Shown here piece after piece: positions 1-10,368 of a stretch of 12,589 nt of DNA. The stretch is from a virus, in UHGV virus genome UHGV-0247912. One strand, 5' to 3'. The notes under the pieces are model-generated. The model did not search any database. It saw only the letters and a list, made by a program, of their open reading frames with translations, and was not told the origin of the DNA. A program made the translations under genes and the position numbers. Numbering within the stretch: the first letter of the stretch is position 1; the number at the start of each line of letters is the position of its first letter.

Positions 1-1158
1 GAGATAGCTGATCGTGATGGCCTGTCAGCCAGGATAAGCCCAAAAGGGAAAATTACTTTCCAGTACCGTTACAGATTCAACGGTAAGCCAGTGCGAATGA
101 AGATCGGTGAATACGGGAAAATGAGTCTGAAAGACGCCCGCTATGCGGTGTCTGAATACAGGGAGTTGCTTACGAAAGGGAAGAATCCGGCACTGTGCGT
201 AAAGCAGGCCATAGCCTTTGAGCAGGGCAAGCGATCTATATCCGACGTAGTGGAAGACTATCTATCCCTGCCGAACGTCATTAAGCTGGTGGCATATAAA
301 GAAGTCAAAAGCGCATTGATGCGCCACGTAGTCAACAAGTACGGCGACTACATAGCTGACGACGTAACGACAAAACAGTGGATGGATATATTTGGCGAGA
401 TCACTGCGGCGGGTCACGCGGTTACGGCTGGTTTGATATTGAAGCGAATGAAAATCATCGTTAACAGCGCAATCAGGCGTGGGCTAATGACTAACACGGC
501 GATAAACAATATCCGTGTAGCTGACGTTGGCGAGCATTATGCGGTGGTGGAGCGTTACCTTTCATGTGAGGAGATAGGCCACTTCTGGCGCACGGTAGAC
601 AGTTCGCAGATCTATCCGCAGAACAAAATAGCCTTAAAGCTATTATTGCTAACCGGGTGCAGGGTTGGTGAATTGCAGAAAATGAGAAGGGAACACCTAG
701 ATCTGGACAACGGTGTATGGACCGTTCCGGCGGCGGTGGCGAAGACAAGAAGTGAAATCAGGCGGGGATTATCTGACTTGTCGATAAAAATGCTCAGGGA
801 GGTTTTAACCTCCCATGAGTATGATTATGTATTCCCGCCAGTGATTAACGGCGGCAACAGGCCAGTAAACGTATCAGTGATAAAAGTAGCTGCAATATTC
901 GTGCGTAAAAGGATGGGCGGTAAATCATGGTCCTGTCACGACCTCCGCAGGACGTGCCGGACACACCTTTCAGCTATAGGTGTTCCGGTACATATTGCAG
1001 AAAAGATCTTAGGCCATTCATTAAGGGGAATACTGGCGGTGTACGACAAATATGATTATCTTGATGAACAAAAGGAGGCACTAAATAAGTTTGCTGATTA
1101 TGTGTTATCTTTGGCTGACGTTAAACCAATCCGATCAAAGAACTGCATTACGTCCTGA
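1..1158 (+). CDS. int: tyrosine recombinase / phage integrase (P4-type); N-terminus lies upstream of the window
   Basis: Frame 1 is open from base 1 (EIADRDGLSARISPKGKITFQYRYRFNGKPVRMKIGEY...), typical integrase N-terminal domain. C-terminal catalytic region has HDLRRT, LGHS and a Tyr near the end (AVYDKYDYL), i.e. the R-H-R-Y pattern. Stop TGA at 1156-1158. Confidence 0.9.
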   Translation, partial: EIADRDGLSARISPKGKITFQYRYRFNGKPVRMKIGEYGKMSLKDARYAVSEYRELLTKGKNPALCVKQAIAFEQGKRSISDVVEDYLSLPNVIKLVAYKEVKSALMRHVVNKYGDYIADDVTTKQWMDIFGEITAAGHAVTAGLILKRMKIIVNSAIRRGLMTNTAINNIRVADVGEHYAVVERYLSCEEIGHFWRTVDSSQIYPQNKIALKLLLLTGCRVGELQKMRREHLDLDNGVWTVPAAVAKTRSEIRRGLSDLSIKMLREVLTSHEYDYVFPPVINGGNRPVNVSVIKVAAIFVRKRMGGKSWSCHDLRRTCRTHLSAIGVPVHIAEKILGHSLRGILAVYDKYDYLDEQKEALNKFADYVLSLADVKPIRSKNCITS

Positions 1159-1328
1159 TAGCGGTACATAACGCCACGCCCGGTCCCAAGTACGTCAACC
1201 GGGTCGGGGAACGGAGTTCCGTTCCGTTCCCATTTTTTACGCCATAAGTAAAACGTTCCCCTGCTAATTCCCCCAAGCATCCGGCAGATGGCAGGGCGAC
1301 TAAGAAGGATTGCCCCGGTTTTATCCAT
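1098..1328 (-). CDS. xis: excisionase / AlpA-family small DNA-binding protein (putative Xis)
   Basis: 76 aa; HTH then FPDPVDVLGTGRGVMYRY, resembling the lambda Xis/AlpA pattern (FPPPVKDGREYLF). RBS GGGGGA about 6 nt before the ATG. Start overlaps the upstream stop (TAATG); 3' end overlaps the convergent int by 61 bp. Confidence 0.65.
   Translation of the reverse strand: MDKTGAILLSRPAICRMLGGISRGTFYLWRKKWERNGTPFPDPVDVLGTGRGVMYRYQDVMQFFDRIGLTSAKDNT
1207..1239 (+). terminator. candidate rho-independent terminator downstream of int, embedded in the convergent xis coding sequence
   Basis: GGGAACGG (1207-1214) pairs with CCGTTCCC (1224-1231), 8-bp stem and 9-nt loop, followed directly by A-TTTTTT (1232-1238), about 50 nt after the int stop. 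Confidence 0.4.
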
Positions 1329-1990
1329 TATTTATCCCCCGTGTATTCAACGTGTCCGATACATCCATCAATAATAGCTTGCGCCATATTGCGATAATCG
1401 CACGAAAAATCATTGTCGTGGTTAAAGTCAATCTCTTTTGCCGCGTCTTCACCCATAACATTGACAGCAAGTGCAAGCGCGATTTCAGCAAGTGCCTTTT
1501 CTTTCGGATCTATATGCAGCTTGAAAGAGCATGTTGTCCATGATAGCGGCCTCTCGCCACAAAAATCTTCCTTGCTTTCACATATAGCCCATTTATCACC
1601 AACATATTTAAACCTGACGACATCAAGAATAGTTCCACTTGTCAAACCTACGCAATCAAGCCACACATTAACAGGAGGCTTATCACCTACGACCCATTCC
1701 GTTTTTTCTTGTTGTGTTTCGCAGTCACGGCGTTCATCTTCGATTAATCCATCAATAATTTCACTTTCTTTATTCATGCCGTCATCATCCTTGTTAGATA
1801 AATTAGCGTATTTATCAAATTTCCAGCTTGCCGCCATAACTGAATAAGTGCCGCGAGTATCAGCGCGGACGCCAACTAAATAGCATGATCCAAAATTGTA
1901 TTCCGTGCGGCATGTTGTTACCTCAAACGATGGGTAAACATCAGGGTTAGTGCGATGACGAATTATGCCAATTACTCTTGATTCACTCAT
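1328..1990 (-). CDS. hypothetical Cys/His-rich protein (220 aa), low-GC cargo gene
   Basis: ORF 1328..2005 in the track; ATG at 1990 is preferred because it is preceded by GAGGA (the track start at 2005 is TTG). Local GC about 32-43% against about 50% in flanking phage genes. No recognisable family. Stop overlaps the xis start. Confidence 0.6.
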   Translation of the reverse strand: MSESRVIGIIRHRTNPDVYPSFEVTTCRTEYNFGSCYLVGVRADTRGTYSVMAASWKFDKYANLSNKDDDGMNKESEIIDGLIEDERRDCETQQEKTEWVVGDKPPVNVWLDCVGLTSGTILDVVRFKYVGDKWAICESKEDFCGERPLSWTTCSFKLHIDPKEKALAEIALALAVNVMGEDAAKEIDFNHDNDFSCDYRNMAQAIIDGCIGHVEYTGDK

Positions 1991-2005
1991 TTTGTTTATC
2001 CTCAA

Positions 2006-2182
2006 TTACGCCACTGTTACATTGTCAACCTTAATAAAATATTCAGGATGATTTTCTATTTCGTGCTTAAAGTGCGCGTGACACAATCGCCACTCACGCG
2101 CCTGGTTGTGAAAGTAATAAACGTATTCGCCATCAACCTTATACAAAATGCCTGTAGGTTTAGCCATGTAATAACTAGCCAT
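2006..2182 (-). CDS. small hypothetical protein (59 aa), nin-region ORF
   Basis: Found by manual translation (below the ORF-track size cutoff): MASYYMAKPTGILYKVDGEYVYYFHNQAREWRLCHAHFKHEIENHPEYFIKVDNVTVA. ATG overlaps the NinB stop (TAATG), suggesting translational coupling. No family recognised. Confidence 0.35.
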   Translation of the reverse strand: MASYYMAKPTGILYKVDGEYVYYFHNQAREWRLCHAHFKHEIENHPEYFIKVDNVTVA

Positions 2183-2613
2183 TATTGCCCCCAGCGTTTT
2201 ATAAATTCCTCGTTTAATTTCGTATCACCTGACCATTGAACATTATGTTCAGCACCGAACGAGTAGATCAGTTCGATTAATTCGCTAAATTCCGCTTTAC
2301 TCATCCGGCTGGTTGATGTTCCCAGCACAACAAAGCCTGATTTGTCCAGGTTAGGGACAACGCCATATTTCTTAAGCCCGGCAGTGAATACCGCCTTCCA
2401 GTCTTCCGGCGACAGCCTCTTACCGTACCAATTAACCTGATCACTAATGTCGGTTAGCAACGCCCATAGAAGGCTATTTTGGCTTAGCGAGCGGGTTTTC
2501 TCCTGGATGGTGATTATCAGCGGGCTTTTGCTATCAGGCTGTATTTCCCTTATCTGCCTGATAGCATTTTCTTTCACGGCGTCGTTGACTATCTCAAATC
2601 TAATTTGCCTCAT
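2182..2613 (-). CDS. ninB: NinB-family recombination protein (lambda Orf/NinB-like)
   Basis: 143 aa; MRQIRFEIVNDAVKENAIRQIREIQPDSKSPLIITIQEKTRSLSQNSLLWALLTDIS follows the pattern of lambda NinB (MKKLTFEIRSP...VVTIQERNRSLDQNRKLWA...). Start overlaps upstream stop (ATGA). Confidence 0.85.
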   Translation of the reverse strand: MRQIRFEIVNDAVKENAIRQIREIQPDSKSPLIITIQEKTRSLSQNSLLWALLTDISDQVNWYGKRLSPEDWKAVFTAGLKKYGVVPNLDKSGFVVLGTSTSRMSKAEFSELIELIYSFGAEHNVQWSGDTKLNEEFIKRWGQ

Positions 2614-2816: not shown

Positions 2817-3023
2817 TTACACAATCCGCATTGTGTTTCTTAATTCCCCACGCAGCGCCCGTAATGCATCGCGCATTGGCACGAAAACACTGTTGAATTT
2901 TACGTGTTTATATTTCCGCATCAGTGGCGGTGTATAAACCATCGCGCCGCAAGAATTGCATGGAAAACGGAAATGTGATTCATCAATGAATGTTTCAACT
3001 GAATAAAAGATTACCCGTCTCAT
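2817..3023 (-). CDS. small hypothetical protein (68 aa) with a CxxC motif
   Basis: ATG at 3023 overlaps the stop of the upstream gene (ATGA); contains FPCNSCG. Confidence 0.45.
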   Translation of the reverse strand: MRRVIFYSVETFIDESHFRFPCNSCGAMVYTPPLMRKYKHVKFNSVFVPMRDALRALRGELRNTMRIV

Positions 3024-3547
3024 AACTCTAACCCAGTTTCGCTGTTAAGTTTTTCGATTTCAAATACTGGTTTATCCGGCAGCAGGCCGTTATTTTTCCG
3101 GTATTCGTTCAGGCGGCTGTTAAATTCAAATACGATAGGACTCGAACAACCATAGAAGCGAGCTGATCTAAAAAAGTATTTCCCATCAAATTTATTAATT
3201 GTTAATAAATTTTCACTGCCTAACATCTTTAAAACCCGACAAATTTTCCTCTGTTTTATTTCGAGTTTTAATTCTTTTTTAACATCCTCAGCAGAAAAAT
3301 AATCGCTACTATTTAGAAATAAAGGCATGATTTTTTTTATTGCCATTTCGCGCACTGACTTCAAGCAATATGATAATCGCGGCCCTCCCATTTCCACAGG
3401 AATAATAGCGCCGTCAGAAACCATATCACGCAAACTATTAACGATCTCGATTTCAGGACCTGGAATAGATTTAATAATTGTTGCTTCACCAGCAACAGTG
3501 GCATCCTGTAAAAATTTCGCTATTTGTGTTTTATAAATGGTTTTCAT
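3020..3547 (-). CDS. hypothetical protein (175 aa), strongly low-GC cargo gene (moron candidate)
   Basis: ORF 3020..3583 in the track; ATG at 3547 preferred (GAGG about 9 nt upstream; the 3583 start is GTG inside the terminator hairpin). GC counted at about 30% over 3121-3360 against about 52% in the adjacent helicase gene. Possible winged-helix-like segment near the C-terminus. No family recognised. Confidence 0.6.
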   Translation of the reverse strand: MKTIYKTQIAKFLQDATVAGEATIIKSIPGPEIEIVNSLRDMVSDGAIIPVEMGGPRLSYCLKSVREMAIKKIMPLFLNSSDYFSAEDVKKELKLEIKQRKICRVLKMLGSENLLTINKFDGKYFFRSARFYGCSSPIVFEFNSRLNEYRKNNGLLPDKPVFEIEKLNSETGLEL

Positions 3548-3565
3548 TGTTTCTAGCCTCGTTTT

Positions 3566-3606
3566 AAGCACAAAAACATCCACCAGAAAGCGGTCAACTT
3601 TCCGGT
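3566..3606 (-). terminator. candidate rho-independent terminator after the helicase gene (tR2-like position)
   Basis: On the minus strand CCGGAAAG-uugaccg-CUUUCUGG (8-bp stem including one G-U) followed by UGGAUGUUUUUGUG; it sits between the DnaB-family gene stop (3627) and the low-GC gene start (3547). Confidence 0.4.
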
Positions 3607-6212: not shown

Positions 6213-6944
6213 CTACTTACACGCAAAAAGTTCAGACACCCAAAGTTGACCCTTAGCAGTAAATAGTGATTGGACGTAACCTCCAGCCGAACATTTTACC
6301 ACTCCATAGCCTTTGTCTACGAACCACTGCTTGAACATACGCCCGCCGCGCTTAATTCTCGTATCGTACACGTCAACCTGTTCAAGTTTTTTGTTGAGTT
6401 GCGTAGCAGTCATACCCAAAGGCTTGGCAACCTGTGTAGCGTTGCGATGCTGTTCGTTTCTTACAATCGCATCACAGACAGCCGCTTTCGGTGCTAATTC
6501 CTTATTTTCCAGCGCCAGACGATCAATTTCTTTCTGTGCTAATAGTTTTTGTTCAACCTCATCAGCCCATGCGCGAGCCGCCGCCACCGGATCAGTGAAA
6601 TCCGGCAAAGCTGGCTGCCGTACCTGTTTTTCGAGTTCCTGCCAGCGATCGACAAGTCGCGCCGTAAATTCAGGGCAGTTTTGAGCAACGACAATTATAC
6701 TATCTCGCTTGCCCTGCTCGCCTTCAAAAACGTAGGCCTTATCTTTTACCTTGAATCCTAAGTTATTGATTCTTTCGAGAAACTGCAATGCAGGACGCCG
6801 GATTACACCTTTATCAGCAAGGCGTTCTATAGAAACAAGCATGTTATCGTGACGGAACTTATTAACTCCGTTCCACTTATTTAGAAAATCAACGATCTCA
6901 ATACTGTTCATCTTAACAGCATCAAACACCATTAATTCAGACAT
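6213..6944 (-). CDS. rha: Rha-family phage regulatory protein / antirepressor-like (Rha N-terminal domain + ANT/KilAC-like C-terminal domain)
   Basis: ATG at 6944 with GGAG RBS. N-terminus has SIEIVDFLNKWNGVNKFRHDNMLVSIERL (the RHDN signature of Rha); C-terminus has ATQVAKPLGMTATQLNKKLEQVDVYDTRIKRGGRMFKQWFVDKGYG. Confidence 0.7.
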   Translation of the reverse strand: MSELMVFDAVKMNSIEIVDFLNKWNGVNKFRHDNMLVSIERLADKGVIRRPALQFLERINNLGFKVKDKAYVFEGEQGKRDSIIVVAQNCPEFTARLVDRWQELEKQVRQPALPDFTDPVAAARAWADEVEQKLLAQKEIDRLALENKELAPKAAVCDAIVRNEQHRNATQVAKPLGMTATQLNKKLEQVDVYDTRIKRGGRMFKQWFVDKGYGVVKCSAGGYVQSLFTAKGQLWVSELFACK

Positions 6945-7076
6945 TGTAATTTCTCCGTAAAACGCGCTACAACGCAAAAATCCCACCGCGTAACCCGTTT
7001 GCACAGGTTGCAGTGTCTTATTGCGTTATAGACGCTCTCAGGTGGCTAATTTTTGATTTACAGGATGGTATGAAGG

Positions 7077-8367: not shown

Positions 8368-8625
8368 TCATCCCTCCGGCAACATCACTACATAGACATC
8401 ACTGAATGCATCAAGACGACAAACAAATCCTTTATCCATTAACGCGGCGAAGGCATCATGTACCGTATGAACAGGAAGTTCACACATTGCGGCTACTTCT
8501 TTGCGTGATGCATCATGTACCCGTCCTTTGTTATCTGCCTTTTCAGCCAGAGCCATTAAGACAAGTTTTTGAATCGGGCTATTAAGTTTTACGTTCCATG
8601 CTTTACTAATCATGTTTATACTCAT
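8368..8625 (-). CDS. small HTH / winged-helix DNA-binding protein (85 aa), first gene of the rightward-type operon (Cro/CII position)
   Basis: ATG at 8625 with AGGAG RBS (track ORF 8368..8703 starts earlier without an RBS); KLVLMALAEKADNKGRVHDASRKEVAAMCELPVHTVHDAFAALMDKGFV looks like a winged-helix DNA-binding domain. Confidence 0.55.
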   Translation of the reverse strand: MSINMISKAWNVKLNSPIQKLVLMALAEKADNKGRVHDASRKEVAAMCELPVHTVHDAFAALMDKGFVCRLDAFSDVYVVMLPEG

Positions 8626-8733
8626 CGCATTTTCTCCTATGGTTAGAGTGAACGCGCGGGCGGGCATCCCATTAGCATTAGATAGCAGTGACTGACCGCT
8701 CAACAGATCCCGCCGTTGCGTGATATTTGTTTT

Positions 8734-10077: not shown

Positions 10078-10368
10078 ATGAGCGTTACAATTATATATGG
10101 TAAATGTGATAGCAAAATGAATGCCAGGGAACGCAGAAGGATAAAAAGAGAAAACGAAAGAAAATCATCACCTGCAATCAATAAAACAGACAATGTGGAT
10201 AAAGCTATTCGATTTGCAAACGAGGAAAGATGCAAACCAAATAGCATTAAAGAACGTCGCAAAGGATCAGTAAAATGGTATACGGAAAATGAAAGCGGCA
10301 GCTACTACCACGCAACGCAACCACGCCATTTAGGGGAAAAACCCCTGGATAAAGTCCGCTACCATTAA
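10078..10368 (+). CDS. N: N-like transcription antitermination protein (arginine-rich motif)
   Basis: 96 aa; N-terminus MSVTIIYGKCDSKMNARERRRIKRENERK has an arginine-rich motif like lambda N (MDAQTRRRERRAEKQ) and, from memory, P22 gp24; first gene after the PL-like promoter and nut-like site; RBS GGAG 8 nt upstream. Confidence 0.7.
   Translation: MSVTIIYGKCDSKMNARERRRIKRENERKSSPAINKTDNVDKAIRFANEERCKPNSIKERRKGSVKWYTENESGSYYHATQPRHLGEKPLDKVRYH

Follow-up and report, generated by a model that had tools for sequence, protein, structure and literature searches.

Is the open reading frame (ORF) of 220 amino acids (aa) that lies directly upstream of an excisionase-like gene in UHGV virus genome UHGV-0247912 foreign cargo, or is it a resident gene of its phage lineage, and what might its product do? 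In order to answer this question, we analyzed a stretch of 12,589 nucleotides (nt) from this genome, in the following called the window, which is the early/immunity region of an mEpimmI-group (mEp021-like) prophage. The mEpimmI phages are Nus-dependent, non-lambdoid temperate siphophages of E. coli, and in a collection of coliphages from the human gut they reportedly equalled lambdoid phages in frequency (PMC11893012). Sequence comparison identifies the ORF (1328..1990, minus strand) as the orthologue of mEp021 gp03 and as a member of the gp03 family, and we refer to it as gp03 below. An original prediction had taken it for a low-GC, Cys/His-rich cargo protein that is translationally coupled to xis. 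We found instead that gp03 is a position-fixed core gene restricted to the mEpimmI lineage and an ordinary-looking core early gene of these phages.

The reading frame runs uninterrupted from an ATG at 1990-1988 to a TAA at 1330-1328. A Shine-Dalgarno sequence (GAGGA, 1999..2003, minus strand) can be read 8 nt before the start codon, and an equivalent ribosome-binding site (AGGAT) is annotated at the corresponding site in mEp021. Homologues begin at the same methionine, which indicates that the 220-aa reading is correct rather than one of 225 aa from a TTG start. For 33 distinct alleles from related loci, the ratio of non-synonymous to synonymous substitution rates (dN/dS, calculated pairwise by the Nei-Gojobori method, NG86) was 0.275 in the frame of gp03 and below 0.32 in each segment, which identifies it as a real coding gene. 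ORF, ribosome-binding site, and dN/dS thus all agree with the real 220-aa protein that had been predicted.

The protein is 61.5% identical over 99% of its length to gp03 of mEp021 (AXN54122.1, mEp021_03, "hypothetical protein") and 51-79% identical over at least 98% of its length to the genes at the same position in mEp010, mEp013, mEp021, mEp044, mEp515, mEp554, and MagusPhagus. These counterparts, which are all annotated as hypothetical and are uncharacterised, correspond to gp03 of the window in family, position, and phage group, whereas mEp021 gp03 differs from it in allele, since its N-terminal, middle, and C-terminal module types are all different. The 360 homologues that we identified belong without exception to E. 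coli/Shigella or Caudoviricetes. The gene order NinB, small ORF (orf58 in the window), gp03, small helix-turn-helix (HTH) gene, and convergent integrase is common to mEp021, MagusPhagus, and E. coli prophages, and it was conserved in 44/44 loci found via gp03 and in 40/41 loci found via NinB. In order to avoid circularity, IMG/VR was searched with NinB instead of gp03, an identity of at least 94% defining the mEpimmI type of NinB. gp03 directly followed orf58 in 40 of the 41 contigs with such a NinB, and the 41st contig stops 7 bp past NinB. None of 15 loci with a distant NinB and no mEpimmI context contained gp03, while locus L087, in which NinB has diverged in an otherwise mEpimmI-like context, carries it.

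The same picture emerged from larger collections. Searches of 5426 complete E. coli genomes with NinB alone, with gp03 alone (sensitive blastn), and with the combined region each gave 35 genomes, with one chromosomal copy each. A 100% identical protein is present on 483 E. coli contigs and is always annotated as hypothetical. A profile hidden Markov model (HMM) searched against 1.84e9 representative proteins retrieved nine clusters, all of which represent this family or its fragments, and a scan of 185,579 species-representative genomes of GTDB gave no match to the family. Cargo would imply a sporadic gene, but gp03 was present in every mEpimmI genome examined and was not found elsewhere.

The foreign origin had been deduced from a local GC content of 32-43% next to neighbouring genes of roughly 50%. 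gp03 has a GC content of 41.8% (34.8% at third codon positions, GC3) and is thus indeed below the 45.6% of the whole window, but its 60-bp blocks span 32-47%, and the neighbours are far from uniform, ranging from 35.8% in orf187 through 39.5% in orf58, 45.4% in NinB, and 47.6% in the integrase gene to 50.6% in the xis-like gene. As a reference, we used a 50-kb sibling prophage from E. coli LP-26-E1-261. It matches positions 1000-2700 of the window with 97.6% identity and has a GC content of 46%, a value also given as the mean of the mEpimmI phage group (PMC11893012). Compared to all 663-bp windows of this prophage, gp03 has a z-score of -1.2, and 12% of these windows are equally low or lower; among the 85 annotated coding sequences, it ranks 20th for GC, with 19 genes lower, and 8th for GC3. 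The GC content of gp03 therefore lies inside the normal range of the element, an outcome that the original prediction had itself set against its claim, and the inference from low GC to foreign cargo fails. Additionally, no sigma-70-like promoter or intrinsic terminator was found to flank gp03 on its strand in a consensus scan. A horizontally acquired cargo gene or moron was accordingly rejected on composition, on transcription signals of its own, and on sporadic presence, and the foreign-cargo reading is largely refuted.

In the leftward early operon, replication genes are followed by DnaB, NinB, orf58, gp03, and the excisionase-like HTH gene, with gp03 thus last but one; the operon ends convergent with int. 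The operon passes nutL, one Nut site of the Gp17 antitermination system (PMC11893012). This passage, together with the lack of a flanking promoter or terminator, suggests that gp03 is expressed early or delayed-early after infection or induction and is silent in the repressed prophage. The stop codon of orf58 (TAA, 2008-2006) lies 15 nt before the ATG of gp03. On the other side, gp03 and the 76-aa HTH gene overlap by one base in a TAATG sequence (gap of -1 nt), the final A of the stop codon being the first base of the HTH start codon (1328-1326), but 3 nt separate the two genes in mEp021. As judged from these alleles, the tight juxtaposition is conserved and the TAATG overlap itself is allele-specific. 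The predicted place next to xis was hence confirmed, gp03 directly abutting the excisionase-like gene on its upstream side at the end of the early operon, while the predicted coupling to xis finds its overlap in this allele and not in the family as a whole.

We next turn to the protein. Searches of Pfam, PHROG, NCBIfam, PADLOC, and PDB sequences gave zero matches for gp03, lenient thresholds included, in line with the earlier statement that no motif could be placed. Scanning 28 diverse family members likewise at lenient thresholds gave no matches either, including to the zinc-finger families of Pfam. Two AlphaFold2 runs agreed on the architecture and contained only globular beta-barrel and helical modules. 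The first of four predicted modules is an N-terminal small beta-barrel (residues 1-65, 1796..1990; all modules on the minus strand) with five strands at residues 8-60 and a predicted local distance difference test (pLDDT) score of about 77-83 in model 1; this confidence was lost in model 2, for which N-terminal types were mixed in the alignment. It is followed by the acidic segment KDDDGMNKESEIIDGLIEDERRDC (residues 66-92, 1715..1795), which ends in an invariant C90, extends over residues 64-94 in the models, and contains a putative helix at residues 75-89 (pLDDT < 50). The third module is a Tudor/SH3-like middle barrel (residues 93-160, 1511..1714) of five strands at about residues 95-158, with a pLDDT of 84-88 in model 2, and the fourth is a C-terminal helical domain (residues 161-220, 1331..1510) with helices at 162-179, 181-185, and 194-208 and a pLDDT of about 80-87. 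The protein is acidic (isoelectric point, pI, 4.66; net charge -15), the linker and the C-terminal domain each contributing -8, and no membrane or export features are predicted.

Fold matches were confined to generic small barrels. The modelled barrels resemble Tudor, SH3-like, and KOW barrels (B. subtilis YfhH 1sf9, the Tudor domains of PHF1/PHF19, the C-terminal Tudor domain of UvrD/PcrA, and the Spt5 KOW domain) at the level of the fold only, with 2-15% identity, and neither a conserved aromatic cage nor another functional signature of Tudor/SH3-like domains was identified in them. Foldseek gave no match at E ≤ 0.001, BFVD gave nothing meaningful, and the combination of acidic helix, C-terminal helical domain, and barrel had no fold match. 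An internal duplication of the two barrels was not supported (hhalign E = 0.28). The motif TEW..G.KPP..VWL, with which the middle barrel opens, is reminiscent of the pattern W..G..PP..VWL of DUF551 (PF04448), a small domain of prophage early proteins, but this likeness was not supported, as 0/28 family members matched at E up to 10. Within the gene, we observed a 19-nt direct repeat (17/19 identical; 1357-1375 and 1741-1759), which encodes IIDG(C/L)I twice, at residues 78-83 of the acidic linker and at residues 206-211 of the C-terminal domain. As the linker reads IIDELI in the family consensus, the repeat may be due to chance or to a small conversion event in this allele.

The only trait by which gp03 stands out is its pattern of variation. 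The four modules differ strongly in how they vary, as determined for 121 homologous proteins and 41 sibling phages in addition to the 33 alleles mentioned above. The N-terminal barrel has a mean pairwise identity of 0.64 and a lowest of 0.32 (about 32-40% between types), falls into 2-3 types, and has a dN/dS of 0.19. The middle barrel is more variable still, with a mean identity of 0.58, a lowest of 0.21, and a dN/dS of 0.31; it comprises 6 types in the 121 proteins and 8 in the 41 phages, the latter being the most of any segment in the 12-kb early region. The acidic linker has a mean identity of 0.90 (lowest 0.56; column identity 0.95-0.96), a single type in the 41 phages, and a dN/dS of 0.09, and the C-terminal domain has a mean identity of 0.86 (lowest 0.51) and a dN/dS of 0.11, with 2 types in the 121 proteins at a cut of 65% and 4 in the 41 phages at a cut of 75%, one of them dominant. 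For comparison, the dN/dS of NinB is 0.03. NinB, DnaB, the 380-aa protein, the initiator, CI, and Erf are of a single type each, bar one divergent NinB, and NinB, DnaB, cI, and Erf are at least 90% identical to the window copies in nearly all of the 41 phages.

Among the 121 proteins, the 2 N-terminal types combine freely with the 6 middle types in roughly equal numbers; for instance, the pairings of N1 or N2 with mid3 or mid4 account for 23, 25, 22, and 22 proteins. This free combination points to recombination through the conserved linker, and the saturation of synonymous substitutions (dS) between types indicates that the barrel alleles are old. A diversity-generating retroelement was considered and rejected, as no reverse transcriptase is annotated in the sibling prophage and the alleles differ by indels and saturated dS. 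We also found a natural form of 127 aa, in which the N-terminal barrel is joined straight to the C-terminal domain without the acidic helix and the middle barrel. A sibling phage (P0124) carries it at the place where gp03 otherwise lies, and the acidic helix plus middle barrel is thus a dispensable insert. On the Logan contig of a sibling phage (SRR32406413; locus L103, 4517-5637), the 127-aa form is preceded by a 246-aa gene in the place of orf58, which has weak BRO-N and Rha matches below cut-off, and in strain MS 21-1 a gene annotated as BRO-N lies inside the matched NinB-to-int region. These two cases imply that the slot between NinB and gp03 accepts insertions.

What could such a protein do? 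The reading that we favour, tentatively and at less than even chances, is that of an early host-takeover or counter-defence adaptor. Universal retention, the probable early expression, acidity, swappable recognition-like domains, and invariant parts together suggest a binder of a polymorphic partner with a common activity. gp03 would be a protein-binding adaptor or inhibitor made early, whose exchangeable barrels would recognise a polymorphic partner, for example a competing phage or a target in host defence or takeover. The common activity, or the docking onto a conserved partner, would fall to the near-invariant acidic helix and the C-terminal domain, the barrel alleles being reassorted by recombination via the conserved segments. 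Acidic phage-encoded inhibitors and DNA mimics such as Ocr and ArdA offer a class for comparison, being early, strongly negative, small, and devoid of an enzymatic motif. gp03 resembles this class in its presumed early expression, its net negative charge, its small size, and its lack of membrane or export features and of an enzymatic motif. In contrast to a member of this class, it has no sequence or structural match to it in PDB or BFVD searches, and its negative charge, as modelled, sits in one helix and the C-terminal domain rather than forming a DNA-like surface.

It is possible, but doubtful, that gp03 is moreover the founding member of a new modular counter-defence or host-takeover family. 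In such a family, the two Tudor/SH3-like barrels would be exchangeable specificity cassettes directed at polymorphic targets in E. coli, a common inhibitory or docking function would reside in the invariant acidic helix and the helical domain, and recombination at the conserved joints would reshuffle the alleles.

Several observations weigh against the adaptor. No homology or structural match ties gp03 to an activity, and the idea draws only on the pattern of variation, acidity, and position. PADLOC-DB yielded 0 families for gp03 at E up to 1, and the sequence and fold searches of PDB and BFVD gave no match to anti-defence proteins. The N-terminal barrel was confidently modelled in only one of the two AlphaFold2 runs. 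A core gene kept by every member of the lineage also fits a lineage-specific housekeeping function. Pairwise NG86 dN/dS revealed no sign of pervasive positive selection, at most 2% of the pairs exceeding 1 and selection being purifying throughout; the diversity may thus reflect ancient alleles and relaxed constraint instead of an arms race. Finally, a search for a partner by allele co-variation in the 41 phages gave only weak associations (adjusted mutual information, AMI, ≤ 0.24) with adjacent genes or clade markers, for which linkage or clade/population structure suffices, so that no partner was identified.

The alternative that survives best, although we regard it as unlikely, is that gp03 modulates the lysis-lysogeny decision or excision as a functional analogue of the proteins of the lambda exo-xis region (Ea22, Ea8.5, orf60a-63). 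gp03 has the same relative place, directly upstream of and adjoining the excisionase-like gene where an N-antiterminated early operon has its distal end, and it is universal in a temperate lineage. The lambda exo-xis proteins come from early-expressed genes shortly before xis and affect lysogenisation as well as the induction of the prophage. Ea22 in particular is, like gp03, the product of an early gene upstream of xis, multi-domain, diverse between phages, and without an enzymatic motif, and its prolysogenic function is preserved despite this diversity (PMC7093339, PMC10834534). The two arrangements are not identical, however, as gp03 lies immediately upstream of the xis-like gene, whereas Ea8.5 lies between Ea22 and xis in lambda. 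Ea22 is encoded in the PL/recombination operon and shares its strand with int, whereas gp03 follows replication genes and is convergent with int. Homology was rejected: hhalign of the family profile gave a probability of 0.5% for lambda Ea22 and of 0.1% for Ea8.5, and there was no PHROG match.

A role in excision is further disfavoured by the independence of gp03 alleles from the type of integrase and recombination directionality factor (RDF). The HTH type tracked the integrase type in 55/55 loci, HTH genes of at least 88% identity pairing with integrases of at least 88%, 45% with 48%, and a third type of 55% with 47%. This supports the HTH gene as the probable cognate excisionase (RDF), its Xis_Gifsy_1 match lying below cut-off. 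gp03 did not follow this pattern. In strain 2017C-4173W12, an identical gp03 has as neighbours an HTH gene of the 45% type and, inserted at abgT, an integrase of 49% identity, and a gp03 of 59% identity was found with a 99%-identical integrase. An identical gp03 next to a differing HTH gene and integrase places the cassette boundary at the stop codon of gp03, and membership of gp03 in the int/xis specificity cassette was rejected, since it does not co-vary with the integrase type.

We consider it rather unlikely that gp03 is a lineage-specific replication or recombination accessory, that is, a housekeeping protein working with NinB, Erf/SSB, the phage DnaB, or the Lin1244-type initiator. Its status as a core, single-copy, position-fixed gene within the replication/recombination operon beside NinB would fit such a role. 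The putative partners are nearly invariant, however, and this speaks against it: NinB, DnaB, orf380, Erf, and cI are mostly at least 90% identical, while the barrels of gp03 fall to 21-40% in at least 8 types. A strongly acidic protein (pI about 4.7) is also unlikely to bind DNA directly, and the natural short form dispenses with the middle barrel.

A further proposal concerns the chemistry of the protein and would be compatible with any of the functional readings. gp03 had been described as rich in Cys and His, of which the former stands and the latter does not: it contains 9 Cys (4.1%; family median 6) and 4 His (1.8%, not enriched), and most of the Cys are not conserved, C27, C36, C113, C137, C144, and C154 varying among homologues. 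Only H12 and C90 are invariant among the 121 homologues, followed by C210 in 115 (95%), H213 in 113 (93%), C197 in 102 (84%), and C113 in 81%. A zinc finger or zinc ribbon was rejected, as gp03 has no CxxC, CxxH-type, or HxxH ligand pairs and no match to a Pfam zinc-finger family. The four best-conserved of these residues, H12, C90, C210, and H213, could conceivably form a Zn-binding or redox-sensitive clamp that holds three parts together, namely the N-terminal barrel, the acidic helix at its end, and the C-terminal tail. Such a clamp would agree with their conservation, with Cys enrichment in a protein without predicted membrane or export features, and with the joint loss of C210 and H213 in a rare divergent C-terminal type. 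We nevertheless regard it as improbable, since CxxC or HxxH spacing is missing, 6-8 of the 121 members lack C210 and H213 with all else kept, and the 127-aa form has no C90-bearing segment.

Very improbable is a low-GC moron serving exclusion, lysogenic conversion, or anti-defence in a permissive nin-xis slot, because its lowish GC3, the insertions that relatives take up in the NinB-to-xis interval, and its lack of a known family are outweighed by a GC content within the spread of the element, by the missing promoter and terminator, by a presence throughout the lineage and absence elsewhere that leave no donor, and by a probable expression within the early operon that makes action from the repressed prophage unlikely.

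The remaining genes of the window complete the picture of the locus. A tyrosine integrase gene (1..1158, plus strand; Pfam Phage_integrase and Arm-DNA-bind_3) opens the window; its N-terminus is cut by the window start, the frame is without stop from base 1, and the full 404-aa gene adjoins dgcM in the sibling prophage. The 76-aa HTH_23/AlpA-like gene, the probable excisionase (1098..1328, minus strand), matches Pfam HTH_23 (2e-6) and PHROG 4745 "DNA binding protein", with a weak Xis_Gifsy_1 match under cut-off. int and the HTH gene are convergent and end at 1158 and 1098, respectively, with a tail-to-tail overlap of 61 bp, and a terminator-like hairpin with a T-run is located on the plus strand inside the HTH gene (1207-1231). 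Read-through from the early operon would yield RNA antisense to the 3' end of int, possibly in a retroregulation-like arrangement. orf58 (2006..2182, minus strand) is a small conserved ORF that was present in 44/44 loci in three types and had no family match in Pfam or PHROGs, and NinB (2182..2613, minus strand; Pfam NinB 3e-46) is a NinB/Orf recombination mediator that is 94-100% identical across the lineage. From the left, the minus strand carries the HTH gene, gp03, orf58, and NinB, then two small ORFs and a MarR-like ORF. These are followed by genes for a DnaB-type helicase, a protein of 380 aa (whose sibling counterpart bears the annotation metallophosphoesterase), a protein with a KilAC antirepressor domain, and a Lin1244-type initiator, and finally by an ORF of 111 aa. 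The plus strand of the right half encodes a CI-like repressor, an Arg-rich 96-aa ORF, Erf, and SSB. No RNA family of Rfam was found within the window.

Some of these neighbours are worth describing in their own right. The MarR-like ORF, orf187 (3020-3583, minus strand), is assigned by PHROG 1687 only. No other gene of the window has a GC content as low (35.8%; 31.9% for GC3), and sibling phages carry it in three allelic types that are about 35% identical to one another; its composition looks more foreign than that of gp03. orf263 (6213-7004, minus strand) encodes the KilAC/ANT antirepressor domain, was detected in 14/41 sibling phages in five types, and is a truly accessory gene within the early operon. 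orf111 (8368-8703, minus strand), the first gene of the leftward operon, adjoins the CI-like repressor and has five allelic types (29-100% identity). The CI-like repressor is at least 90% identical in all 39 sibling phages in which it was found, a mismatch that would be unexpected if orf111 were a Cro-like partner. The Arg-rich 96-aa ORF (10078-10368, plus strand; MNARERRRIKRENERK...) has no family match and probably encodes Gp17, the N-like antiterminator known from mEp021. The sibling prophage L102 has a gene of 456 aa (30259-31629) that is flanked by those for the large terminase and the minor head protein and bears the annotation "anti-CBASS protein Acb1 family protein"; judged by its place beside the terminase, it may be the portal gene.

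Overall, the mild GC depression and the few cysteines of gp03 do not mark it as foreign cargo. Its sequence is already public in phage genomes as an unstudied hypothetical protein; the protein accessions are mentioned in no paper, and the mEpimmI paper with its supplements (PMC11893012) is silent on gp03. What is new is the view of gp03 as a core protein of four modules that is restricted to one lineage and has barrel alleles resembling cassettes; no new kind of system emerges from it. As a gene that is kept by all members of the lineage and whose recognition-like domains are reshuffled, gp03 is a sensible first candidate for handling variable host or competitor factors. If gp03 does found a new counter-defence or takeover family, the mEpimmI phages would hold a cassette-type arms-race locus amid an otherwise conserved early operon.

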